DNA of 63,093 bases, filler included, from Stramenopiles sp. TOSAG23-2 (GCA_900128395.1; 6 parts of 6 records of this genome joined end to end with filler, not necessarily neighbours in it); one strand, 5' to 3'. Counted from the whole stretch's first letter, positions 5,641 through 43,434 are shown. Translations and numbers: made by a program. Notes: generated by a model not told the origin, from the sequence alone.

Positions 5641-8600
5641 TTATTGCCATTGTAAATTTTTATATTTCTCTACAATATTACGTTCTTTCTCTAAGAATTT
5701 AATAGCATCATTCATTCGGTCCATTCCTAATTTTCTATTTTTTCTCAATGCCGTATCGTGATCTTTCATGGCAATACGGAGTTCACCAGTAATTTTGTCA
5801 TCTCTAGCTGTTTCATATTCCAATAAGGCCTTGTAACCTTTATCATCTGGTCGTGCCACATGCCATCTTTTTGAGCAACCACCAATGCCAAACTCGCTTT
5901 CTTGAACCGAGTCGCAACAGCTCCAACGGCGTTTATAATGGGCGATGCATTTAACAGTATCTGCTTTTTTGCCTCGGAAAGGACAGCTTCGTGGACACAT
6001 AACTGAAAATTGCCCAGGATGAAACTCACATGCTTCTGAATGATTCTGAACTTCTGAATATAATTTACAGCAATGCAGACATTTAGCTTTACGATTTTGA
6101 TGAGTCTTTAATAATGAACGTGGTACATTTGGACGAACAATGCTATCCTCAGGCTCATATAGACCAGCCAATTCTCGTTCCTTACGGCGATGTCTAGCCC
6201 ATGCAGGTTCATTATCTTTACTAAATTCACCACCAAATTCATTGTAGCCAGCAGTACCATGCATTTTCCGCCTTGCTTCTTGGCGCTCCTCATTCGTAAC
6301 TCTACGTAGATCGAACTCATGTTTAACCAATGCGTAACGTAATTGGAATGCTTTACGTTTTCCAACATAGGAGCGTAACCACATGTTCCATGCACTGAAT
6401 GCAAACTCCAACGCTTTCATTTGATATTTGTAGAACATTTCTTTTCCTAACACAGATTTACGCAATCGCAATCTTTCATCTCTATCATGCTGACGGCGCA
6501 ATGCCTTCATTTGAACACGTTTTTTATGGTATATAACTGCATTTGCGCGTATGGCCTCTTGCAACATAATGAGCCTTCGCTCAATGACACACAGTTCGCT
6601 GCGAGTAGCAATTGTTTGAGCCAGTATGTAAAAATATTGATAATGTAGCTCTTTATATAACGTATCCGTTTCGAAACGTTGTGACCGACCATGCAATACG
6701 GTGGTATCCATGAACTTTGTCAACTCTTCTACTTTCCTACGCAGGATCAATAAACGTCGTACTTCCGGTTTTAAATGATTCACCAAAGCTTGTTGTTCTT
6801 TTTCGTAATTCAATGCATCGTCCGCAATTTCACGCTCCTTACGTGCAATGACACGTAGACGCTGTTCCTCTTGATTTCTTTTCCTTGAGTGGAAATTTAT
6901 ACGTTGCATATTTTCTTTTGCCTTTGCTAAACGTCCAAATGCCATGAAAAATTCATTTGAACTTTGCATTAAGCTCAATTCTGCTTTGCAACAATCCATC
7001 ACAGCACGCTGGACAGCAATTGCTAAATCAGCACTTGCTTTTGCAAATTTCAATCGTGATTCTAATTTTGCCCTGTCACTAGCAGATGGCGGTTTCCCCA
7101 AACGCTTTTTTCGCCTCATTTTACGTTTTGTTCGTAGCAATGCCTCTTTATCTTGTTTGCGCCAAGCCTTTGTCTCTGACACTTCATCGGCGAAATGTTG
7201 CATTGATGGAGGTGGTAATTCATCTTCATCCGATGAACTTTCTTGAGAATCATAATCTACACTATCTTCATCCTCTTCATCATCTTCATCGCCATCATCT
7301 TCACCTTCATCTGATGATGAACTGACATCATCAAAAGCCAATTCACTTTTCATTTGTGCTTCTTGCCTTAGACGCATGTCTTCTAATTGCATTGCTTTTC
7401 CCAACTCATCTTCCAACATCATTTGTGCAACTTCACGTTTGATTCTTTGTCTTTCCGCAGTTTTCTTTTTCATTTCAGCACGACGTAATGCTTTTCTACT
7501 TGGCTTTTGCTTTGGTTCAGATCCACCAACATCGTATTTGCTTTTACGACTGTAAAATTCTTCGTCTTGTAAAAACTTCTTCATTTCCCTTTCCGCATTT
7601 GCCATAGCACGCCGTTCAATCAAACAAAGCTTCATCTCTTCCTTGTAAAATGCTTTGCATTCCTTCTCAATTCTTTGCATAGCTTCTCGCTCTGCTTTTT
7701 CTCTAGCACGTTGGGCTTCCAATTTCAAACGACGCTCTTTTTGCTCCTCGGTTTCCTCCGGCTCCTCATCTTGCAGTACAAGTTTCAGTGATTTACCCCA
7801 TTTAGCCAATGCCTGCCGTAACTCCATCATGCGGCCATTTTGTACTCTTAACAATCGCATATATACTGCGTGGTGCATTGGTATATCTTGTCCACGATTA
7901 TTTTTCTTCGAGGGGAAGACGACACCACTATCTGTTTCCGCTCGTTCGCGAGCTTGTATGCTACCATTAAATATCTCACGAGCAACTTCTTCAGCATATT
8001 GATTTACAACATCATCTAAGAAAATCAACCAAGACTGTTCATCTTGGACAAGAGTTTCTTCTTTTTTCCTCCACTTTTCGCGTACCTCATCTTCAGCTTT
8101 CTTCTCTTCCTCTTCTAAAAATTCTTTTTTCAATCGTTTAACCGTATTTCGTTTCAATCTAAATTTTGCAATACGATTTAGTGCAACTGGCTTTTTACCT
8201 TTTCCATCCCATGAATTGGCTTCTTTGAGTTTTTGCACTTCCACTTCGTCTACATATGCCTTTGCTTTGTCTTTAATTTCCGATTGCTTCAACTGCGTGT
8301 TTAATTTTGCAGGGGCAGCCGCGGCTGCTACTTTCTTTGCATCAGACACTTCTGCAGTAATCTCCTTCTCCCATCTCTCCCATCGCACCATGTATGCCGT
8401 ATTGTCATCTTCAATCTTCATTTCTTTACGTTCTCGAATCTCTTGAATACGTTCATGGTCATAAAATTTCTTCATAGCTTCATCTTCGGCTGCCATTGCT
8501 AAATTTTCTGCATTACGAACTGCTTGATAATGTTTGACAACGTTATCAACAGGAAGGTAGATCTTCGTTCCGACTGGCCATCCTCCACCAGGCATTACTA

Positions 8601-11600
8601 CTAATGTTGGTGGCATAGGATCTGCCAAACGTTTAGCACGTTCCTCGCGCTCTCTAGCTTTTTTTTCCTCTGCTTGTGCATCAACAAAAGCTTTTGGCTT
8701 TCCCATACGCCCGCAATCTTTACACTTCTCAGCTTCTGCTGGATTTTCACAATCACATATTGTACATTTCCATCCCGCTTTTACAAGCGCAGCGACACGT
8801 ATTTTTTCCATCATATCACGCTGCCACGCTTCTTCAGCAATCATTTTTTCGTTTTCCTGCTCTTCCTTCCGCTTCTCTAAAAATGCTGTTTCCGCCCTAA
8901 CAACCTTTAACGGTTTCTTTGTATCACACCCACGGCATCTTACATCAATCCTTTTGTTTGTTCGGCCACAAAATTTACACAACCATTTAAATAAAACATC
9001 TGGATTATTTGCTTCCGCTTTTCTGCGTTCCTCCGCCTCTTTCTCCATTTCTGCCAATTTGATTTTTGCAAGTTCTTCCGCATCCGCTGCATTTCGTTTA
9101 TCCTTTGCCGTAGCTTTTCCAATTTCCTCTTCTCCCTCGCCTGGGCGATAGAATAAGACGCGGACACGCCCCCATTTGCGTACAAAAAGCACTTGTCCAC
9201 GCCTACAATAGTGCAACCGCTCTGGTAATTCGCTAACTTTCAGAAGTAATTCTTGAGCCGATTCAAATTTCAGTGTCGAATCTTCAACCTCTTTTTTTGC
9301 CTGTTTCATTTGTTCTACAGCCCATTCTCTCCAACTCAACATTTCTCTCACTTGCAGCTCAACTTCTTTATGCTCCTGCTCACGAAGGACAGCGCCACTT
9401 TCCGTTTGAGCACGTTGCTCGGATGCAATGTATAATTGTTTTGTTGCTTCCTCTAATCCTTCTACAGCTACATTATGTTTATTTTGTGCCTTGTGGCGCC
9501 TTTGTAAAATTTTCTCACACCGGCTATGTTCCTCTTCCACTTCTGCCATACGATCTTCAAACATGACAAGCTCCATGTGACACTGGCCTAAGCGCCTCGT
9601 AAATTGCGCTTTATGCGTTTTCATTAATGCTCTGGCCGCACGTAATTCGTTCACACGAAACATGAAAATATCTAACCGTGCGTAGTACCCCAAAACATCT
9701 CGATGACGTGCGCGTCTTTTTCCAATAAAATCCCGTACCCTCAATGGCACTTGCAACATACCACCCATAAATGTTTCCGCTTGACTGCCTACAATTTGTT
9801 CCAAATTATCAACACCTTCGCTTACAATTTCAGTGTTCATTGCTAATGCAACTTGCTCTGATGCTTTCATATCTTCCGTTCCTGCTAATTTTGCTGCTTC
9901 TACGCGACTAAGTTGCATCGCCAAAGCGTTTGCTGCTTCTTGTATAGAATAGCGATGTCTACCGTACATTTCCTCGACATCTTTTTCAAAACGCAGATCG
10001 TAGAAGCCAGGCTCCGATTCCAAGACTAAACGCTCTTCTTTTTCTGTTCGTCTACGCTCTGCATATATTCGAATTAATTGTGCAGCGTCTTTAAAACGAA
10101 ATGCACCATGTTCTTCGTTCCTATGTCTTTGTATTGCATCTTCCAATTCTGCTGAGATGGTACATAATTGTGAAAGATCTTCATGCGATTTAGTTAACTC
10201 CATATTGCAATCTTTGCACCGAATTCCTTTGCCATACAATGTTGCCCAGTATTTTATATTTACATGTTCGCATCGGGAAACGGGTGGCAACGCTTTTTGA
10301 AAATTCGGTATTTTCAACTTGTTACGCATTAAATCACGTTCCAATGCAACTTGTTGCAGATATTCCATCCTACTTTCTTCCGCTATACGTTCGTCTTCTT
10401 CCCTTCTTAATTCTGCCGCAGCCGCCTCCGCTTCCCTATTCAAGCGCGCTTCTTCCTTTTTTCCAGCCCACACTTCTTCCCATTTTCTACGACAGTTTAA
10501 ACGCGCAACAGCAATTGTTTTTTTTATGTACTTTTCTTTTGCAACGATAACAGCAGCTTCTGGTTCTATAAATTCTGCAAATCCATCCTCCGTGCCTATT
10601 CCTTGCTTAAATTCTTCCATAATTTGCTCGTGTTGCGCCTCAAACTCTGCTTGCATAATAGGAGTTTCTGCCATGTGATATGCAGATGCTTTAGCGTCGG
10701 TAATTGTTTTCTTCATATCCTCTCTCATTTGTTTTCGCAATTCTTCTGCATCTGCCATTCTTTGGTTTTCTGCATCTTGTAAAATTTTCATTTCTCTTTC
10801 AGCAGCTTCTGACCGCGCATTTTTTTCAACCTCGAAACGTATGCGCCGTTTCTCCTCCATAACTGCCCGTCTTGCATCAACACTGGCCATATCTGATTTT
10901 AAAATAACAAATCGACGTTCAGTCAAATTTTCCCATTGCACTGGACTTCCTTCAGCGCCATAATAACAGACAGAATGTAAGACTTGTAAATTCGTTCCTC
11001 CTTGTGTCCATTGAACACGCATTTCAACAACTGATCCAAGTCTCCATCTCTCCTCCTCTTGAAAGTAAAGCTCTAATCGCGAGCCTACAAGCTCCCGTGC
11101 CATTTCCAAATCAACTTGAATTCCCCGGCGTTTACGCATTATAAAAGCCCGCTTCGACTGTTTAATTTTTTTCGCTAATCGTGATTCCTTATACTTCTTT
11201 TGGATTTCGGATACTTTTAGGCGCTTTTTTCTTTCCCTAGCACGCCTCATGTTTTTCAAAGCTTGAACTAAATCAGCCGTTTGTGGGCGCAAATTGTTTT
11301 TCATTTCATTTGACATTTCATCGTCCTCGTAATCATCTACCTCGCTTTCCTTTCTGTCTTCCAAGGAAAATCGATTTCGTTTTTGCTCTAACTCTTCCTC
11401 GCTTTCCTCACCAGGGCGTCTGGGCTTATCCTCATTTGCTGCAAACATATTTGGTTGATCATCAAATGAGCCCATCGACGATTGGTTTGGTTGCTTAAAC
11501 GAAGTACCATCATCTTTTCCTGGTGCACCGGTTATCTGGCGATCAGGCTCTTCGTTTATTGTTCGGTTTGCCGCGTTTGGCGCTTTATGCCCAGCACGTG

Positions 11601-14466
11601 GCCACTTTTTGACTTCTCTCTTTTTCTCACGTTCCTTCGCTTCTATTTCATCTTCACTATCCGAATAAATTTCATCAATTTGTTGTTGATCTATATCTTC
11701 GCCTTGCTCCATTTTTCGCAATTCCGTAATCCTATCTGCTCTCTCTTTTTCTCGCTTTTTAAATTGGTGATCTGCCATTTTGTGATTCTTATCGTTAACT
11801 TTGTCGCTTCGCATTTTTTCCCTCATATCTGCTTCTTGTCTAGCTTGTGCTTCTCTATCCGCAATCTTTCTATCATACCCCATTTGTCTTTTCAATTCAT
11901 CCCTTAAATAGGCTGCTAAATGTTCTTTTTTAAATCGTTGAAAGTGTCCATTTACGATTAAACTATCCCATGTAGTTACTTCATCACCGGCATTTTCTAA
12001 TTTTATTAATTCCTCTAAAAGTACAGCACCACGTGATTTCCCTTGCTTTCGCTCAATTCTTAATTTTTTAACATATGAAGACAGTACACGATTTGTTTTA
12101 GGATCTATAAGCTCCAATGGTTCCGGTTCAATTTGCCGATACCGTCCACGTGTAACAAGCATGTGATCATCTATACTTTCAGTGGAACTAGCCATTTCAA
12201 AACGATACGTTAATTTATTTCCTTGATACTGCCGACTTACTGAATACCTAACTCCAGCTTGACCAGGTGCTCTTACATTATTAAATTTCCCAACTAAGTC
12301 CAATGACATAGCACTACCACCCATGCGGACGGTAATAAAATCATTGGGATCCCCTGCAGCTGGCGCTAGCTCATCAGCTTTTGTTACTAAAAAATCTATT
12401 TGCCATAAACCTACTTTTGGGAATTCAATGCGTCCTTGTATGACACCAAAAGTTGCTTTTCCTAGAATTACATTTTCAACATTCCATTGATCGACACCAG
12501 CTGTTTGTGCCTTGTCTCTACTGCCCCACCAATTTACCCAACCTTCATGTACAATATTTACTTTTCTTAATTTATCATTTTTCCAAAATTTTTTAACAGC
12601 TCCTTGGATATCACCATGAGCCATTTCCCCCATAGTATGTCGTAATCTACCTAATATATTTCCCAATCTAGCTTCTCCTAATTCAACTACTGCCCGTTGT
12701 TCCTGTCGACGATGTTTTGCTTTCCACTCCTCATGATTCAATCGTCGTAAATCTGCTAGGCGCTTGTCTGCTAATTTGGACTCTTCCTTTAATATTTCTA
12801 ATTTACTACCTAACAAGACATCCCTAATTTCACGTTTAGACGCTGCTAATTGATGTCGTAAAGATGGAACTTCTCGAATAGATCGGCCAATTACCATTGG
12901 TAACGATGGAACAAATTCTTGCTCTTTCTCTAAACCAGCTTCTGCTTTTATTTTTTTCTCACGTATTACGGCTAATCTTGGTGCAATTCTTAACTCTTTC
13001 ATAGCTGCTTCATCACGCTCATCTGCTAAATTTTTACATCGAATTTCTAAATCTTTTTTCTCGCGCAACAATTTCATAATTCTTTCTTTGCGCTCATCTA
13101 CAATCACACGCTCAAAGCGATATGCTAAACGTCTACCAACATGCCGTTGTCCTACACCAGCAAGTTCATCTTCAAACTCTTTTTGTTCCAAACGATGCTG
13201 TGCTATATCTTCAGCTACTTTCGTAACCCTTTCTTCCAACGTTAATCGTTCTTCTTCTGCCTCTAGCTGAGCCCGCTTTAGCGTTTCGTATTCCTGTGTT
13301 AATTTACCTTCTTTTTGTTCTAAATCATAATATGCCGTTTTACGCTCCTCAAATGCAGCATCTGTTGGGCCTGTTCCAGCCAATGACATCGATAATGTAT
13401 GATCATCAACACCTGGTACATGGCCAGTTCTAGCATATGATTTTTCATTAAGTGGTTTTCCAAAAATTCCTAATCGTGGAGGACCATCTGATATATCTGG
13501 TATACCTCGTTCTTGTATCTTTAACATCATTTCAACATCATGATCTTCTTGTTGATATGATTTGCCAGATTTTTCATCTTCTTGTTGCGCTTCTAATTCT
13601 TGTCGTTTTAACATTTCGACAACTGCTCTCTCTTCATCAATCGCTAATTTTTTTAATTTTTTTGCCATCACATTACGTTTCTTCTTCAAAGCAAATTGTC
13701 TTCTATTTTCTGCTACTAGTCTACGACGTGCTTCTTCCTTTAATTTTCCTTGTATATATTTTTCTCGCTTTGCTTTAATCATATTATTAAATGCATCTTT
13801 ATCCCGTTGTTTGTACATATCTTCTAGTGCATTTGCCCTTTCTTTTAAAGGTTTTTCATATTCAACCATTGCTCGTCGCTTTTCCTCTTTTTTTATTTCT
13901 TGCAATCGTTCATATCGTCTAATTTTGCGAGCTTTTTCGCGTTCATCGAATAACTTTGTGGCTATAAATATATATAGTAATCAATGTAAGAAAGATGGTT
14001 AGTAAATGTGCATTTATGTGGATATTCGATGATAATAATATAACTTACCTTCTGTCTGTTGTTGATCGATTCGTTCTCTATGTTCCCTAGCTTTTCTAAG
14101 TTTACGTGCAAATGGTGGTTCCACAAATCGAGCACCTTTTGCTGCTAATACTTTTGCTTGCATTCTAGCCTTTTCATATGATTTACCTGCAAACTTAATA
14201 ATTTGATCTGATGTTGGCAATTTTAAAGGTGGTTTCTTGTCAATATCACGTTTACCTCCCAACCTGTCTAATTTTGATTGCAGATCAGAACGATATGGGT
14301 TTACAAAGTTTTTCGCCTCCCGTTCTTCTCGTTCCCATATTAGTTCCATTTTTCGTATACTAAATTCATCTGGATCTAAACCACGATCGATCCATTCGTA
14401 TCGTGCTTCATCTTCCAATTCATCTCGATCGGCACCAAGGCCTTCAAGTCCACCACGTCCAGCCAT
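5641..14466 (-). CDS. Giant (~2900 aa) coiled-coil protein with two RanBP2-type zinc fingers, a Tudor-like segment and a C-terminal Cys/His-rich domain; two exons
   Basis: Intron 13962..14048 (GTAAGT...TATAG on the - strand) joins ORF 14014..14466 in frame to the 2754-aa ORF. Motifs WLCKFCGRTN..CRGC and WKCTICDCEN..CKDC, VGSRLELYF..W, and C-terminal CLHC..CEFHPG..WSCC..GC...WH. Confidence 0.8.
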
Positions 14467-36006: not shown

Positions 36007-39000
36007 ATGTTAACTATTATATCTTCGTCAGTGAAAAAAAATGTTTTCAAACAACATGTTCATTTTAAAAAAATCAATAATAACAAAAATGTAATAATAA
36101 CAACACGTCGTACTATGGCGACAATGAAAAAATGGAGAGATTATATTAAAGAAAATCCATACTCATATGAACGTGGAGGGGAAGGATATAAGAAGATAGA
36201 GGAGATTATAAATAATTTAAGTCATTCGGAATTGCAAATTTTCGTTAATTTAAGTGGTGCTGCAAAATCATTTGGTTCATTGAGTAAAGAAGCATGGTCC
36301 GTAGAACATTTAGGTTTTAATATTGCAAGAGAAGTTGTCGGTAGACGATTAGGTGTCTCAATGGAAGAAGCACCAGGTCCAAGGTCAAATTCTGGGGAAG
36401 GTGGACAGCTAATGGATGATCCAAATTCAAAAGCATCCATTGTGCAAGTCGCTAGTGGACGTTGGATGGGTGATTCGCCATTGAAATATCTAGCCGATGC
36501 AGAAGAGATTGATATCAAAATTGCACAAGGTGTTAAACCAGGCGACGGTGGACATTTGCCGGGAACAAAAGCTACGCCATTAATTGCGCGTGTGCGCGGT
36601 GCAAGGCCTGGAAGAGATTTATATTCACCACCACCACACCACGACATTTACTCCGTAGAAGATTTAGCACAACTTATACATGATTTGAGGCAAGTCAATC
36701 CTCAGGTAAGAAAAATATGGGTGAAATTAGCATCACGTAGTGGTGTTGGACCGATTTCATTAGTAGTAGCCAAAGCAGGTGCTGGCGTTGAAGTGACTGG
36801 ATTTGGTGGTACTGGTGCTGCAAAAGCAGAGAGCAAACATTTTTATGTAAGAGACAATACACCTGGAATTTTGGAGGTGCGAAATAGTTTAATATCAGAA
36901 GGTTTATGGCCAATAGATTTAGCAGCCAGTGGCCGTATACAAACAGCAGAAGATATCGCACGTGTCGTTTTCATGGGTGCGAATCGTATCAATATGGGCA
37001 CACCACTCATGCTTGCGAATGGATGCGTGAAAGCAGATTCTTGTCAAAATGATGATTGTCCAGTAGGTATTGCGACGCAACAAGAGCATTTAATAGAAAA
37101 ATTCCCAGGAAGGCCAGAAAATGCAATACGTTTCCTTTCTTTTCTATCAAAGCAAACCCAACGAATATTTGATCAATATGGATTAGATTTTCATAGTGCA
37201 CGAGGCCGTGCTGATTTGTTACAAGTTGAAATGAATGAGTCAATACGTACAGGATTGCCTGAATTTTTGAAGCTGCCGGAGCCTCCAGCATGGGCAGCAT
37301 CACTATCAAAAACGCAACGTGTACCGCATGATTTGTTCGATAAAACAACGGAGCAAAAATTAATTGCAAATATTGCATTGTTACCAGATTCCTTAAACGA
37401 AAAAATTGTTTTGAATGAATCTATAACAAACAAGCATAGAACGTTTGGTGCATTGCTTTCGAATCATATCGTTCGAAACAAAGATTTTGAAGAGAAAATT
37501 AATAAAAATGGATTAAGGATTAATTGTGACGGTGTTGGCGGGCTAAGTTTTGGCACTGGATTACCAAAAAACGTTGAATTAGTTGTAGATGGACCGGTTA
37601 ACCATGGTGTAGGCAAAGCATTAAGTGGCGGAACAATCATAGCGCAAGTGATGGGCGATCAAGCTGGATATGGTGCTGGAAACGGTACATTGATCACCCG
37701 CTCAATCGGCGATCGTGCTGCAATTCGGAGTTATGAATTAGATGTCTTAGTCGAGACGACTGGTGATATGAGCTCTTGTTACCGTACTGGTGGCCATTTT
37801 TTCGTTCTAGGGCATCCATCACATTACAATAGCAGTAGTACATTTAAAGTTGGTAATTATAAAAGTATGGATCTATGGTCAAATAACCATGCAATGGGTC
37901 CAGGTATCGGTGGCGGTATGGGTGGTGGCGTAATTGTCCTACCACGTCAATTGCATGAGGAGAATGTATCAAATATGAGATATGCACCATCATTACAAAA
38001 TGTTTTGCCCCGTGATATGAAACCAGAAGAGACGCAGTTGCTTGTAAATTTATTGACTCAAGCAAATGGTGCTTTAAAAGATTGCCAGCTGATGGAAGCA
38101 CTATTAAATGAAGGCGAAACGTTTTTAAATAAACATATGGTTGTCCTTGATCCAGTTGCTGCCCAACCAATTGCCAAAGGAAAACATCATCCAAATGTTA
38201 CATGGAAAAAGCACGAATCAGAGAATTCCGTATTAGCAATCGATTGGGAAAAAGGAAACGAACGTTCAATGAGTGCCTTGAATATTGCGCAAAGTAAAGG
38301 ATTTTTCGATGTATTTCAAGAATTAAGCGGGACAAGTCTTAAAAGAGAAGAATCCAGCGCTTGTGGTGTGCATTTTTTAGGTGCAAAACAAGGATCATCG
38401 AAAGAGGTAGTTGACCGGTTGTTACATAGCTTACATTTAATGGCTCATCGTGCCGGTTATGCTGATCCAAAATCATGTGATGGCGCTGGCATAAATTTAA
38501 AAATTGACGCTGAATTCTGGAAAAACAAGTTCCCAAATTTTAAAGATGTTTTTGAGGACAATAATTATGCCATCGTTGCATCGTTTATTCCAGAGGAAGC
38601 AAAAGCGGGGGAGAAATATATCGCGCGTTTTGAAAAACATTTAATAAATGAAGGTTTGACATTAAGTGCAAAGCGTGAAGTTCCGATGAATAGAGAGCAT
38701 TTTGGTGTTGTTGCCACTACACAGCAATTACCTATCATGCAATTTTTAGTACTGCGTCCAACTGATATGCCCAGTGCTAAATTTGAGGCGGCATTGTTAC
38801 GATTTCAAACACGCATGGATTATGAAACATTAAAATCAACGTGGGACCTAGAGAAAAAACCTTCTATCATATCAGCAGAGCCGGATGGTAATGTTATTTA
38901 CAAAGGTTTAATGGCTCCAAGCGATTTAGCAAATGCATTTCCAGATTTAAAAGATCCATTATGTAAAGCATCTCGCGGTTTAGTTCATGATAGATTTTGT

Positions 39001-42000
39001 ACAAATGCACCAAAAGGTTTAGATAAAATCCAGCCACTATCCATTATAGCTAATAATGGGGAAATGAATAGTCTATCATCATTATACCAATTTATGACAA
39101 ACGATAGTAGCTTTTTAGATTTTCTGGGCCTTGAAGAGAGTGCCAAGTTATGGGACGAAACGTTGGAAGGGGAAGTTCCATTGAGCGATTCGTACATGTT
39201 GAGTGTCTATTTAAGATACTTATTAGCAACGCAGCCGGAAAAATCATTTGTGGATCATATTGCCTCGTTGATACCGAATGTTGTAAATAAGCAAGAAGAT
39301 CCTGAGCGTTACTTATCGACATTTTTAGCCGCTGTAAATTATGTCGGTCCTTTAGCCGGCGTATTTTCATGGTCTGGTAAAGTAGTAGTTGGTGTTGATC
39401 CAAATGGTTTCCGCCCATTATGTGCTACTGAATTTACAAATGAAGAAGGTACAGAGTTTTTGCAATTTAGTTCAGAATGGATAACGGATATTGACGGAGC
39501 AAAGTATTCCGTCGTACATCCAGGCCAAGTATTAGAATTAGATGCTACAAATGGTAATATTATCCCAGCAAATATGGGCGAACCGTGGAATGAGCATCCG
39601 GCAAATAGCAACAGCAAAGGGACGAAAAAGAAAAAAAGTGAGGGGACTTTTGGAATATATTTTTATCCTCCAAAGAGCAAGAACGATGTTTCACCAATAC
39701 AGGATTTAAATACTGAAATTCTTCATGCATTAAAACCAATGGTTGGATGGAATCAGGATAATGATAAATATGTCAAAGATCTTTGCCGTGGTAAACTGTC
39801 GATTGAATCCATGGGCCATGCAGGGCCAACTGCTAGTGAAGTTCGTGGCAATGTTGCGCCAAATAGTTTTGATTTGCTAAATCATAGTTTTGCGCAAGTT
39901 AGTAACCCTCCATTGGCGTGGAGAGAGGAAGGTGATTATATGTCCTTGGATACGCGTGTTGGTCCATATCTATTGCCGTCCCCTTTTCTATCTAATGCAA
40001 TGATAAATTCGTTGCAAGAAAAACTAGAGTCAAAAGTAGTATCCACCACATTTCCAGTGCATACAATGGCACCAGGAATGAGGGTGTGTCTTCAACGCAT
40101 CGTAAATGACGTTGTAGAAGCAGTTGAAGAAGGAAAACGATTTATAGTCTTATCAGAACTTGATATTAGTCCTAGCAACGGACCATGCCCATTAAATCTA
40201 GTCGTTGGTTCTGTTCATCAATCCTTGCTTAAATTAGGTTTGAGAAAGGATGTACACTTGTGCGTGCAGAGCATTTCCGCTTTGCGTCCAGGTCATTTTT
40301 CACAATTATTAGCAATGGGTGCTGATACAATTCACCCAGTATTACTGCTAGATCCTCGCGTAAATGCATCATTGGAGGAAACTAATACCGATGAAGATTC
40401 TGTAAATATTTCTATGGAAGAACACTCTGCGAATGTTTTATCTGGCTGTGACGAAGGTTTGAAGCATTATATGTCAACGGTTGGTTTAGGAACTATCAGT
40501 TCATATCGTGGCGGATCTCACATTTGGCAAGCAGAAACATTGAATACTGAAGTTGCGGATTTAATGGGTTTGCAACCACCAAGATTTTCCGGTATTGGCT
40601 TTGGAAGATTAGCGAAATGGCTGTATACCACTTGGTTTTTCCCATCTAAAGAAGGACCAGGGTTGTACCAATACAACGGACAACGTGCAACTGTTCCTGT
40701 TTGGTCAGCTGAATACACTCGTGCAGTAAGACGTATGGCAGCAGATGAAAAAGAAGATGAAACCATGATCCAAGATATGGAAGTTGCTTGCGACAATGTC
40801 AATGTAATTAAACGTAGTGCTTGGAGTATGTCCCGTATACCATCAAAAATGTGGGGGCCTGAAAATCCAATGAATATATGCGTAGTAGGTGGTGGCGCAG
40901 CAGGGTATTTTGTAACTAACGAATTGCTTGAAGCGGATATCCCAGCCAATGTCACCATGGTAGAAAAAAATTTAATCAATGGTGGTGGTGTTGTATATCG
41001 TGGCCTTTCTCCATTGCATCATTCAACGAAACGAAATACGTTGAAAAGGCTATTAAATATTCATAAAAGTGGAATAGAAAAAGGCGCCTTAAGCTATGCT
41101 GGTGGTGTTCAAATAAATAAAGGAGATTTAAAAAAGTTATTATCCACCTTTAGTGTAGTCATTGATGCATCTGGATCATCAACGGCAAATCACTTGAGTT
41201 GTCCAGGTCATCAACATGCAACCGAAGCGGCAGAAATTTACAGCAGATACAATCAAATCATGGATCCAACCTCAATAAAAAGTAGTGTCGACTCCCATTG
41301 GCATGGTTCTTTAAATCGCTTTAATCGCGCTACGGTAGTTGTTGGAGGTGGAAATGTTGCATTTGATATTTTATCTGTATTGACATTGAGTAAACATTTA
41401 TTCGAACCACATACAATTAATCAAAAATTTATCGAAGCGCGAGATGAATATGGCTCTACACATGTTGTGTCATTAATACGCAAGCAACCGTGGGATTTAG
41501 CCAGTGACGTCCATGTTTTGAAAGAATTTTTTTCATTAATGCAAAAATCAAATGTCAAGATTCAAGTTAGTGGTGTTAGTAAATTGGAGCCTACAGATGA
41601 CATGACAGAGCAAGAACGGGCAAAATTAGAATTATTTTTAGAATATGTAGATAAAGAAGATAAATTGAATGAAGAATTTTGGCCTGAAGCAAGAGATGGT
41701 CGTAGTGTCCATTTCCGCTTCGGACAAGAAGTGTCGAATATTGAACGTTTAAAAGGTGGTTTAAAAGTTACCATTGGCCAAAATGGACAATACGTGAAAG
41801 AATTTCAAGCATACCAAGTGATTGAAGCTATGGGTTATGTTGGTGAGGATAAATTTGAAATATTTGGGGAAAACAACGGTGCATTAGAAAGCTTATCAGC
41901 GGAAGAAAAAAAGCAAATATATCAAGCCGGGTGGGCATTTAAACCTGGGAATTTAGCATCTGCTGAAGGTTCTGCGAAGAAAATTGTTGGAGAAATCACA

Positions 42001-42570
42001 CGAAATTATCACATGGGAGTTTTCCATGGATTGGGCAAAAGCTCTATTCAAGGTGCACAAATTGAACCGCTACTTGCCTCTGCACCAGTTGATACAAGTA
42101 CACAAGAAAATATTTTTAATTATTTACTTGAAGTTGGTCGTATCGAGGAGGCGGAAGATTATTTCAATGCAAGATCATTTGTTAGTATGGAAATGGCAGC
42201 AAATTTTGAAAGGTCTTTGTCAAATATACACACGCCACCAGCAGTTGATAGCGTTGATGATGTATTGGTTGGCGCAGTATCGAATGTTCGTGATGGCTTT
42301 TTCGGCTTTACGGATGATGGTGGTGATTTTATTGAATATGCAGCAAATGATGCACGTTTAGATGAAGTTATTGGATGTACTGGTAGTTGCGATGGTGCAA
42401 AAACTTGTTTGGATTGTGTTGTTGATGTAATTGGAAAAGAGGTAGATGCAGATGCATCAGAAACTAGATTATTGGCTCAAATTGGGATGTTTAAACCAAA
42501 TAGAATTTTGAGTTGTTGTCATACGGCAAAGGAGGTTGAAAAATCAACTGTTAAGTCAGTTGAGGCTTGA
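36007..42570 (+). CDS. Circularly permuted glutamate synthase-like protein fused to an adrenodoxin-reductase-like domain and a 2Fe-2S ferredoxin
   Basis: Motifs in order: SFGSLS/SNSGEGG/QVASGR/IKIAQGVKPGDGGHLPG/PPPHHDIYSVEDL/GGTGA/CX5CX4CPVGIATQ (FMN + 3Fe-4S); GLSFG/GKALSGG (GXGXG); SACGV/HR/DGAG/HDRFCTN/NNGE/SDS/NGFRP (GATase type 2); SMG/FAQVSNPP/ISSYRG (central); VVGGGAAG and GGGNVAFD (pyridine nucleotide oxidoreductase); CX5CX2C...RILSC (2Fe-2S). Confidence 0.92.
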   Translation: MLTIISSSVKKNVFKQHVHFKKINNNKNVIITTRRTMATMKKWRDYIKENPYSYERGGEGYKKIEEIINNLSHSELQIFVNLSGAAKSFGSLSKEAWSVEHLGFNIAREVVGRRLGVSMEEAPGPRSNSGEGGQLMDDPNSKASIVQVASGRWMGDSPLKYLADAEEIDIKIAQGVKPGDGGHLPGTKATPLIARVRGARPGRDLYSPPPHHDIYSVEDLAQLIHDLRQVNPQVRKIWVKLASRSGVGPISLVVAKAGAGVEVTGFGGTGAAKAESKHFYVRDNTPGILEVRNSLISEGLWPIDLAASGRIQTAEDIARVVFMGANRINMGTPLMLANGCVKADSCQNDDCPVGIATQQEHLIEKFPGRPENAIRFLSFLSKQTQRIFDQYGLDFHSARGRADLLQVEMNESIRTGLPEFLKLPEPPAWAASLSKTQRVPHDLFDKTTEQKLIANIALLPDSLNEKIVLNESITNKHRTFGALLSNHIVRNKDFEEKINKNGLRINCDGVGGLSFGTGLPKNVELVVDGPVNHGVGKALSGGTIIAQVMGDQAGYGAGNGTLITRSIGDRAAIRSYELDVLVETTGDMSSCYRTGGHFFVLGHPSHYNSSSTFKVGNYKSMDLWSNNHAMGPGIGGGMGGGVIVLPRQLHEENVSNMRYAPSLQNVLPRDMKPEETQLLVNLLTQANGALKDCQLMEALLNEGETFLNKHMVVLDPVAAQPIAKGKHHPNVTWKKHESENSVLAIDWEKGNERSMSALNIAQSKGFFDVFQELSGTSLKREESSACGVHFLGAKQGSSKEVVDRLLHSLHLMAHRAGYADPKSCDGAGINLKIDAEFWKNKFPNFKDVFEDNNYAIVASFIPEEAKAGEKYIARFEKHLINEGLTLSAKREVPMNREHFGVVATTQQLPIMQFLVLRPTDMPSAKFEAALLRFQTRMDYETLKSTWDLEKKPSIISAEPDGNVIYKGLMAPSDLANAFPDLKDPLCKASRGLVHDRFCTNAPKGLDKIQPLSIIANNGEMNSLSSLYQFMTNDSSFLDFLGLEESAKLWDETLEGEVPLSDSYMLSVYLRYLLATQPEKSFVDHIASLIPNVVNKQEDPERYLSTFLAAVNYVGPLAGVFSWSGKVVVGVDPNGFRPLCATEFTNEEGTEFLQFSSEWITDIDGAKYSVVHPGQVLELDATNGNIIPANMGEPWNEHPANSNSKGTKKKKSEGTFGIYFYPPKSKNDVSPIQDLNTEILHALKPMVGWNQDNDKYVKDLCRGKLSIESMGHAGPTASEVRGNVAPNSFDLLNHSFAQVSNPPLAWREEGDYMSLDTRVGPYLLPSPFLSNAMINSLQEKLESKVVSTTFPVHTMAPGMRVCLQRIVNDVVEAVEEGKRFIVLSELDISPSNGPCPLNLVVGSVHQSLLKLGLRKDVHLCVQSISALRPGHFSQLLAMGADTIHPVLLLDPRVNASLEETNTDEDSVNISMEEHSANVLSGCDEGLKHYMSTVGLGTISSYRGGSHIWQAETLNTEVADLMGLQPPRFSGIGFGRLAKWLYTTWFFPSKEGPGLYQYNGQRATVPVWSAEYTRAVRRMAADEKEDETMIQDMEVACDNVNVIKRSAWSMSRIPSKMWGPENPMNICVVGGGAAGYFVTNELLEADIPANVTMVEKNLINGGGVVYRGLSPLHHSTKRNTLKRLLNIHKSGIEKGALSYAGGVQINKGDLKKLLSTFSVVIDASGSSTANHLSCPGHQHATEAAEIYSRYNQIMDPTSIKSSVDSHWHGSLNRFNRATVVVGGGNVAFDILSVLTLSKHLFEPHTINQKFIEARDEYGSTHVVSLIRKQPWDLASDVHVLKEFFSLMQKSNVKIQVSGVSKLEPTDDMTEQERAKLELFLEYVDKEDKLNEEFWPEARDGRSVHFRFGQEVSNIERLKGGLKVTIGQNGQYVKEFQAYQVIEAMGYVGEDKFEIFGENNGALESLSAEEKKQIYQAGWAFKPGNLASAEGSAKKIVGEITRNYHMGVFHGLGKSSIQGAQIEPLLASAPVDTSTQENIFNYLLEVGRIEEAEDYFNARSFVSMEMAANFERSLSNIHTPPAVDSVDDVLVGAVSNVRDGFFGFTDDGGDFIEYAANDARLDEVIGCTGSCDGAKTCLDCVVDVIGKEVDADASETRLLAQIGMFKPNRILSCCHTAKEVEKSTVKSVEA

Positions 42571-43434
42571 GATTTTATCATATTTTTATATTATAATATT
42601 ATATATATTTTTAGAAAAGTATAGGAATTATTTCAATTATCATGAGTAAATTAAAAAATAAAATTTTAACTGCGTAAAACTAATATAATATTATTTTTAT
42701 ATATCTTGAAGAGTAGGAATTATCATGAGTAAATTAAAAATAAATTATGCGTAAATTAAATTATTATAAAAGATAAAAAAAAAATAAAAAATATACTTTT
42801 GTATTTAAATTTATAATATTAATAGGATATCTGGTTATATTTTATAAAAATGAAAAACTTTTTATGATCCTTTTTTCTTCTTGTTGTCTCTAATATCAAT
42901 TTTCTGAGACGCGATTACAAAATACTTTTTTTGACAAATATTGTGTGTGTTTTGGAAAAAAAAAAATAAAACACTTTGCCCATGTATTCCCCATTTTCTC
43001 TAAATTTTGATTTTTTTATGATCCTTTTTTCTTCTTGTTGTCTCTAATATCAATTTTCTGAGACGCGAACAATAATACGTTTTTTCATTAAAACATATTT
43101 TTTGGTACAGTAGAGGGAGAGAGAGGTTTTTTTATTGTTCAAAATACTTTTTTTGACAAATATTGTGTGTGTTTTGGAAAAAAAAAAAAAAACACTTTGC
43201 CCATGTATTCCCCATTTTCTCTAAATTTTGATTTTGTTATTTTTAATATTATATATAATATACTACGTGTGTATAAAAATATACTTCCTATGTTTGAATT
43301 AATCAGTTTGTTCCTCTTCAGTTGAAAACACTTTGCCCATGTATTCCCCATTTTCTCTAAATTTTGATTTTGTTATTTTTAATATTATATATAATATACT
43401 ACGTGTGTATAAAAATATACTTCCTATGTTTGAA

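Follow-up and report, generated by a model that had tools for sequence, protein, structure and literature searches.

How does a glutamate synthase receive its electrons when the iron-sulfur relay of GltD is missing and a reductase of another kind stands in its place? The question is raised by a gene in a 63,093-nucleotide stretch of DNA from Stramenopiles sp. TOSAG23-2 (GCA_900128395.1; parts of six records joined end to end with filler), the whole of which will be called the window. Nucleotides 36007-42570 of its plus strand form one uninterrupted open reading frame (ORF) of 2187 codons plus a stop codon. The ORF codes for catalytic domains of the GltB (alpha subunit) type, followed in the C-terminal approximately 570 residues (nucleotides 40867-42567) by a flavoprotein reductase and a ferredoxin-like domain. 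Nucleotide 40867 begins codon 1621 (PMNICVVGGGAAG...), and 42570 is the last base of the stop codon.

According to passages of a 2021 review (PMC8097209), glutamate synthases occur as NADPH-dependent, ferredoxin-dependent and NADH-dependent forms and as split archaeal ORFs, and the pyridine nucleotide-dependent enzymes all use the two-[4Fe-4S] relay of GltD. From sequence and model comparisons we consider it likely (probability roughly 0.75) that the ORF encodes a self-contained pyridine nucleotide-dependent glutamate synthase of an undescribed architecture, in which an arm made of an adrenodoxin reductase (AdR)/FprA-type module and a ferredoxin domain, attached to a permuted catalytic core, would replace GltD.

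The reductase module and the linker preceding it

All motifs on which an earlier, sequence-only reading of this DNA had based its proposal were located in the translated ORF between residues 1624 and 2171. These are the flavin adenine dinucleotide (FAD) motif ICVVGGGAAG (residues 1624-1633), GGVVYRGLSPLH (1660-1671), VVGGGNVAFD (1778-1787), AGW (1974-1976) and, at the C-terminus, SCDGAKTCLDC...RILSCC. For the comparisons a 589-residue module was used, whose residue 1 corresponds to residue 1599 and whose last residue to residue 2187 of the protein. Module residues G30, G32, G182, G184, V186 and D189, together with four cysteines, are invariant in all 24 homologues. Since these homologues, outside the window's own clade, are 21-25% identical to the window sequence, the motifs cannot be attributed to chance. 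Of the four AdR/FprA motifs taken from the alignments, GGGAAG, GGGNVAFD and GW are present in the window module and the fourth, APDH, is altered (see below). An R-K pair of the module aligns with the RR pair of bovine adrenodoxin reductase (1cjc). In AdR the RR pair has a role in 2'-phosphate binding.

When the module was used as a single-sequence query, 1cjc was detected with 31.8 bits (E 6.8e-7) and the GltD chain 2vdc_G with 19.8 bits (E 0.0028). A HMMER search over 1.84 billion representative sequences gave 219 matches at E<=1e-3, including about 15 proteins of approximately 2100 residues that were 26-30% identical across the whole module. A family profile built from the module and 23 relatives (24 sequences) was searched against the PDB. 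It detected AdR (1cjc) with 168.7 bits (E 9.6e-49) and FprA (1lqt) with 163.1 bits (E 4.9e-47), whereas the best GltD chain (7mfm_I) scored 41.4 bits (E 2.5e-10). On the GltD model TIGR01316 the module scored 22.6 bits; the cut-off is 471.75.

The structural comparison gave the same ranking. An AlphaFold2 (AF2) model calculated from a 70-row alignment had a mean predicted local distance difference test (pLDDT) value of 84.9 and a predicted template modelling score of 0.75, whereas single-sequence AF2 reached a pLDDT of only 34.4. With this model as query, Foldseek placed AdR/FprA structures at ranks 1-7 (E about 1.3e-23, TMt 0.73) and GltD at rank 13 (E 1.8e-12, TMt 0.49). In VIA-align FprA was superposed with Z 32.1 (393 residues, root-mean-square deviation 2.9), the next entry with Z 21.6, and the GltD chains with Z 16.6 and 14.5. 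Feature matches in the ESM Atlas fell into clusters named after adrenodoxin reductase, which is a lead, nothing more. Profile scores (168.7 versus 41.4 bits) and fold scores (Z 32.1 versus 16.6) agree with the assignment made from the motifs. Alignment and model both support a closer relation of the module to adrenodoxin reductase/FprA than to GltD.

The sequence-only reading had also noted that the cysteine cluster of GltD is missing, and this was borne out. The approximately 115 residues preceding the GxGxxG motif contain no cysteine or a single one in 17 of 17 full-length relatives. Beyond residue 1500 the window protein has cysteines at 1595, 1625, 1732, 2124, 2128, 2134, 2137, 2170 and 2171, and just one of these falls within residues 1505-1623. 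With this single linker cysteine there is no GltD-type 4Fe-4S region. The Pfam domain Fer4_20, a marker of GltD that covers the ligand region of the two [4Fe-4S] clusters, matched none of the 24 family members and none of the 19 nearest standalone AdR-like proteins scanned, no one of which is GltD-like. One detail of the earlier description, that the FAD motif follows directly on the central domain, had to be corrected: the Pfam central domain ends at residue 1504, about 116 residues ahead of the motif. The first ~35 residues of the intervening linker still align to the GltB alpha subunit, up to its residue 756.

The FAD/NADPH part of GltD has itself been termed 'adrenodoxin reductase-like' in a passage of the review cited above (PMC8097209), so the exchange of the flavoprotein stays within one superfamily. 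Even so the swap is clear-cut, and the truly different part is the iron-sulfur relay.

The fused modules (24) and standalone relatives (46) were compared in a tree obtained by a quick search, with midpoint rooting and no GltD outgroup. A branch with a support value (Shimodaira-Hasegawa-like approximate likelihood ratio test) of 99 set all 24 fused modules apart from the standalone sequences. Within the sampled sequences this topology fits a single fusion event.

The C-terminal domain and the proposed electron path

The cysteines of the terminal motif are Cys2128, Cys2134, Cys2137 and Cys2170/2171, and the spacing read from the sequence is CX5CX2C-X32-C. Module residues C530, C536, C539 and C572 (Cys2128, Cys2134, Cys2137 and Cys2170 of the protein) were invariant in all 24 family members as well as in a 14-sequence alignment of the tail. 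A profile built from these 14 tail sequences alone and searched against the PDB gave 42 distinct sequences at E<=0.01. Most of them, including all top-ranked ones, were adrenodoxin-type ferredoxins, with terpredoxin (8.5e-9), 3hui, ferredoxin VI, putidaredoxin (1.2e-6) and adrenodoxin (1.4e-5) in the lead. The alignments covered nearly the entire chains, and the CX5CX2C motif and the last cysteine were in register with those of terpredoxin, 3hui, ferredoxin VI, putidaredoxin and adrenodoxin, as expected from the adrenodoxin-type pattern that had been recognized in the window sequence. In the AF2 model the pLDDT of the ferredoxin domain is about 65-92. The low-confidence stretch in front of it (Table 1) is probably a flexible tether of ~16 residues.

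The sequence-only reading had put forward a chain NAD(P)H > FAD > 2Fe-2S > 3Fe-4S > flavin mononucleotide (FMN). Its components are backed by the homology of the modules and by the invariant ligands; the path itself we infer. Provided that the cofactors are bound as in the homologous proteins, NAD(P)H, the presumed nucleotide, would reduce the FAD of the AdR/FprA-type module, and the FAD would hand over single electrons to the tethered 2Fe-2S domain. The latter would shuttle and pass the electrons to the 3Fe-4S cluster (Cys340, Cys346 and Cys351), from where they would reach FMN. The reduced FMN would then reduce 2-iminoglutarate, formed from 2-oxoglutarate and the ammonia tunnelled from the glutaminase site (Cys786).

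Several observations weigh against this interpretation. A Fer2 match had been anticipated for the last ~100 residues, and in the window protein the tail reached 15.4 bits, below the Pfam cut-off of 21. Used as a single sequence, the tail had one PDB match, 3lxf, with an E-value of 0.32 and with the cysteines shifted out of register by three residues. In the tree, the window sequence and three close relatives sit on a very long branch (2.49). In the window clade the APDH motif, conserved to at least 90% across 70 sequences, is replaced by SPLH, which retains the histidine, and GNVAADLARI has become GNVAFDILSV. Finally, the internal position of Cys786 is awkward for an amidotransferase of the N-terminal nucleophile (Ntn) type unless the chain is cleaved (see below). 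With respect to the Fer2 match, part of the family did better: nine of the 24 members gave matches at E<=0.01, the best at 1.2e-7, and P0013, P0014 and P0018 were above the cut-off (21.3-27.9 bits). The assignment of the tail as a ferredoxin is made because of the family profile and not because of the window's own Fer2 score. As to the long branch and the changed motifs, function may be altered or reduced in the window lineage. The module is 61% identical to P0003, and for two close full-length relatives, P0162 and P0163, the overall identity is 65-66%; by this comparison the decay of the module is no faster than that of the catalytic core.

The same two features, long branch and altered consensus motifs, would be accounted for if the modules are what they look like and the arm does not feed the 3Fe-4S/FMN side of its own enzyme, because its ferredoxin domain takes electrons from, or gives them to, an external partner, or because it has a regulatory role or is inactive in the window clade. 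Adrenodoxin-type ferredoxins normally serve several acceptors, which also speaks for this possibility. However, the fusion has been kept, with every ligand retained, across homologues of 21-25% identity, and the enzyme needs an electron donor, whereas the known input device, the GltD region, is absent from the chain. For these reasons we regard an arm that works for something else as unlikely, and prefer delivery of electrons within the same polypeptide.

Arrangement of the catalytic domains and comparison with known glutamate synthases

The Pfam domains of the catalytic part follow each other in the order FMN, GXGXG, glutamine amidotransferase (GATase), central, and not in the canonical order GATase, central, FMN, GXGXG. 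In the numbering of GltB the FMN and GXGXG domains correspond to residues ~850-1500, and the glutaminase and central domains, which come after them here, to residues 1 to ~756. The same order was found in 13 of the 16 long relatives scanned; two others are truncated at the N-terminus and are consistent with it, and P0136 differs. As aligned, the GltB-like part is circularly permuted, a property that, like the internal glutaminase cysteine, had not been stated in the sequence-only reading. P0136, a distant relative of 2334 residues, has the order Glu_synthase, GXGXG, central, Pyr_redox_2, GATase_2 and carries an insertion of ~75 residues within the 3Fe-4S motif.

All 16 full-length sequences have kept Cys340, Cys346 and Cys351 of the 3Fe-4S motif and the glutaminase nucleophile Cys786. 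Cys786 aligns with residue 1 of the deposited chains 1llw_A, 1ea0_A and 2vdc_A, and is internal here as a consequence of the circular permutation. Ntn amidotransferases rely on the amino group of Cys1 being free, and because of this need processing in front of Cys786 can be inferred. The sequence around this position, REESSA/CGV (the slash marks the bond preceding the cysteine), resembles EDEHDA/CGV of the precursor-numbered A. brasilense chain. Judged from these alignments the polypeptide is probably cleaved before Cys786, which would give chains of ~785 and ~1400 residues. The internal location of the residue implies either such cleavage or an unusual glutaminase mechanism.

The permuted order is one of the reasons to ask whether the glutamate synthase fold has been kept for a different amidotransferase or reductive reaction. 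The Glu_synthase score of the window protein (250.7 bits versus 220-354 in relatives) was counted as lower, and the NCBIfam GltB equivalog model gave 500 bits with a cut-off of 1047. A low score on the latter model is to be expected, since the permutation divides the match into two stretches. The protein has the full set of four GltB domains, including the glutaminase cysteine, the HR(G/A) motif and the 3Fe-4S motif, and many invariant residues of the synthase domain are shared. A change of the reaction is accordingly improbable in our judgement, and glutamate synthesis is the presumed function of the catalytic part.

Among the known forms the eukaryotic NADH-dependent glutamate synthase (NADH-GOGAT), in which a GltB-like alpha part is fused to a GltD-like beta part, is similar in outline: this class, described in the review (PMC8097209), likewise has a single chain of ~2100-2200 residues with the four alpha domains and a C-terminal FAD/NAD(P)H reductase. 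In the protein described here, unlike in NADH-GOGAT, the alpha part is permuted, the reductase is of the AdR/FprA type, the two 4Fe-4S clusters are missing and a 2Fe-2S domain is added at the C-terminus. The reductase could still be viewed as a divergent GltD, fused as in NADH-GOGAT and followed by a tail that binds no cluster, which is the case that the sequence-only reading had named as its own refutation. GltD is itself AdR-like (PMC8097209, as cited), and the module does detect it weakly (E 0.0028 with the single sequence, 2.5e-10 with the profile, 22.6 bits on TIGR01316). Yet AdR/FprA are ahead of GltD by about 127 bits and 15 Z units, Fer4_20 and the cysteine cluster are missing, the four cysteines of the tail do not vary in the family and align in register with those that bind the cluster in ferredoxins, and the domain order is unlike that of NADH-GOGAT. 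Taken together, a divergent GltD has very little to recommend it.

The bacterial GltB/GltD enzymes (6s6s, 2vdc, 7mfm) share the catalytic domains and the 3Fe-4S motif, and GltB chains give matches with E-values from 0 to 1e-285, but these enzymes are made of separate subunits with the canonical domain order and, according to the same source (PMC8097209), use the path FAD to two [4Fe-4S] to 3Fe-4S. Archaeal-type glutamate synthase, compared by its description in those passages (PMC8097209), is similar in that its domains can be separated or re-ordered, but it consists of separate polypeptides and lacks an AdR/adrenodoxin arm.

In ferredoxin-dependent glutamate synthase (Fd-GOGAT, 1llw) single electrons of a 2Fe-2S ferredoxin enter at the 3Fe-4S/FMN side, as proposed here. 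The ferredoxin of Fd-GOGAT is free, plant-type and reduced by photosystem I, whereas the one described here is adrenodoxin-type, covalently tethered and accompanied in cis by a reductase of its own. The AdR-adrenodoxin pair (1cjc, 1e6e) and FprA (1lqt), which gave the two C-terminal modules their best matches in sequence and fold, follow the same logic of NADPH to FAD to 2Fe-2S. Adrenodoxin reductase, adrenodoxin and FprA are separate proteins serving P450s and iron-sulfur biogenesis, whereas in the window protein reductase and ferredoxin are fused to each other and to the acceptor enzyme.

An AdR-type reductase joined to a ferredoxin also occurs in 10 of the 19 standalone AdR-like proteins, which carry an N-terminal Fer4 ferredoxin (P0045, P0091, P0099, P0103, P0106, P0115, P0122, P0135, P0140 and P0144) and are thus FprB-like; their ferredoxin is of the 4Fe-4S/7Fe type and N-terminal, and there is no acceptor enzyme. 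Two other standalone AdR-like proteins carry HtaA or hemerythrin domains. No permuted or AdR/adrenodoxin-fused glutamate synthase was found in the literature searched, whose scope did not extend to subscription-only papers and database architecture pages.

Transcripts, surroundings and range of the family

RNA contigs from four studies were aligned to the ORF as evidence of presence and continuity, not of expression level. The junction between the GXGXG and glutaminase domains was spanned by a contig covering 38227-38712, that between the central domain and the reductase by contigs covering 39175-41472 and 39713-42455, and the segment from reductase through ferredoxin into the 3' flank by a contig covering 41586-42671. 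There were no spliced joints inside the ORF among these contigs. Seventeen RNA runs, for the most part marine metatranscriptomes of polyA RNA, contained the ORF; they belonged to at least 10 studies. An artefact of assembly or gene modelling that united separate genes is hardly credible, as the ORF is unbroken, a protein collection holds an identical 2187-residue protein with 39 member sequences, independent assemblies carry the same architecture and every junction examined is spanned by RNA contigs from the four studies.

Table 1. Features of the glutamate synthase ORF; nucleotide positions are those of the window, residue numbers those of the encoded protein
Feature	Nucleotides	Strand	Size or basis
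Whole ORF: permuted glutamate synthase, reductase and ferredoxin (putative)	36007..42570	+	2187 aa
FMN/synthase domain, residues 22-393	36070..37185	+	Pfam Glu_synthase 3.2e-74
3Fe-4S motif CX5CX4C, Cys340/Cys346/Cys351	37024-37059	+	within FMN domain
GXGXG beta-helix domain, residues 473-643	37423..37935	+	Pfam 2.8e-19
Class-II (Ntn) glutamine amidotransferase, residues 786-1187	38362..39567	+	GATase_2 5.6e-41
Nucleophile Cys786	38362-38364	+	internal to chain
Glutamate synthase central domain, residues 1261-1504	39787..40518	+	Glu_syn_central 2.1e-34
Linker, residues 1505-1620, one Cys	40519..40866	+	Cys count and GltB alignment
Adrenodoxin-reductase/FprA-like FAD and NAD(P)H module, residues 1618-2074	40858..42228	+	sequence, profile, fold
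Pyr_redox_2, residues 1623-1814		+	Pfam
GGGAAG	40888-40905	+	
VVGGGNVAFD	within 41335-41367	+	
Low-confidence stretch, residues 2079-2094	42241..42288	+	pLDDT <50 at module residues 481-496
Adrenodoxin-type [2Fe-2S] ferredoxin-like domain, residues 2095-2187	42289..42567	+	family profile, invariant Cys
Candidate ligands Cys2128, Cys2134, Cys2137, Cys2170	42388-42516	+	

Ahead of the FMN domain the protein has an N-terminal extension (residues 1-41, nucleotides 36007-36130) rich in K, S, T and R; that of P0162 is similarly rich in R and S. By its composition the extension looks like an organelle-targeting presequence. The neighbouring genes of the window are eukaryotic (a poly(A)-binding protein with MLLE domain, NOT2/3/5, PHD, SH3, WW, MORN and PPR). 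The G+C content of the ORF is ~0.39, as in other coding stretches of the window; that of the spacers is ~0.30.

On the 3' side of the ORF the direct repeat TATCATGAGTAAATTAAA occupies 42638-42655 and 42721-42738, with no further exact copy in the window. RNA contigs are heaped at the 3' flank (42620-42760), where the summed depth is 106-273 compared with 5-17 across the ORF, and many differing loose contig ends lie at 42706-42765. The repeat region could be a short element common to many transcripts, or a low-complexity artefact. Elsewhere in the window, the minus strand carries a 2754-residue ORF (5641-13905) with no Pfam match at E<=0.001.

One family member, P0016, is a fragment of 1439 residues, filed at NCBI as a hypothetical protein from a single-cell genome of Candidatus Marinamargulisbacteria. 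The family may reach bacteria, or the record may be contaminated. Scans of metagenome contigs with P0018 and P0173 found no family locus, and a scan of genome contigs with the FAD-motif pattern only returned, among the matches listed, one irrelevant standalone oxidoreductase of 401 residues, a result that has no bearing on absence from prokaryotes.

If the proposed electron path is correct, the electron-input side of glutamate synthase is modular, and the GltD relay can be exchanged for a tethered 2Fe-2S domain with an AdR-type reductase. The protein would then be a natural single-chain system in which electron transfer between domains can be studied, and as such would interest those who work on flavoenzymes and nitrogen assimilation. 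It also raises the question of how an amidotransferase of the Ntn type can function when it is not at the start of the chain. Source databases name the proteins 'hypothetical protein' or give them generic domain labels, and the finding may matter for the annotation of such genes. A more far-reaching picture, which in our opinion stands at even odds, is that marine eukaryotic plankton, and perhaps some bacteria, have glutamate synthases of an additional class, in which the permuted alpha chain would cut itself or be cut before Cys786, the AdR/adrenodoxin arm would swing between FAD and the 3Fe-4S cluster, and an electron supply of the mitochondrial P450 type would have been recruited wholesale into nitrogen assimilation. 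Since at least 10 marine studies have the ORF in their polyA metatranscriptomes, the enzyme may matter for the nitrogen assimilation of some marine protists.

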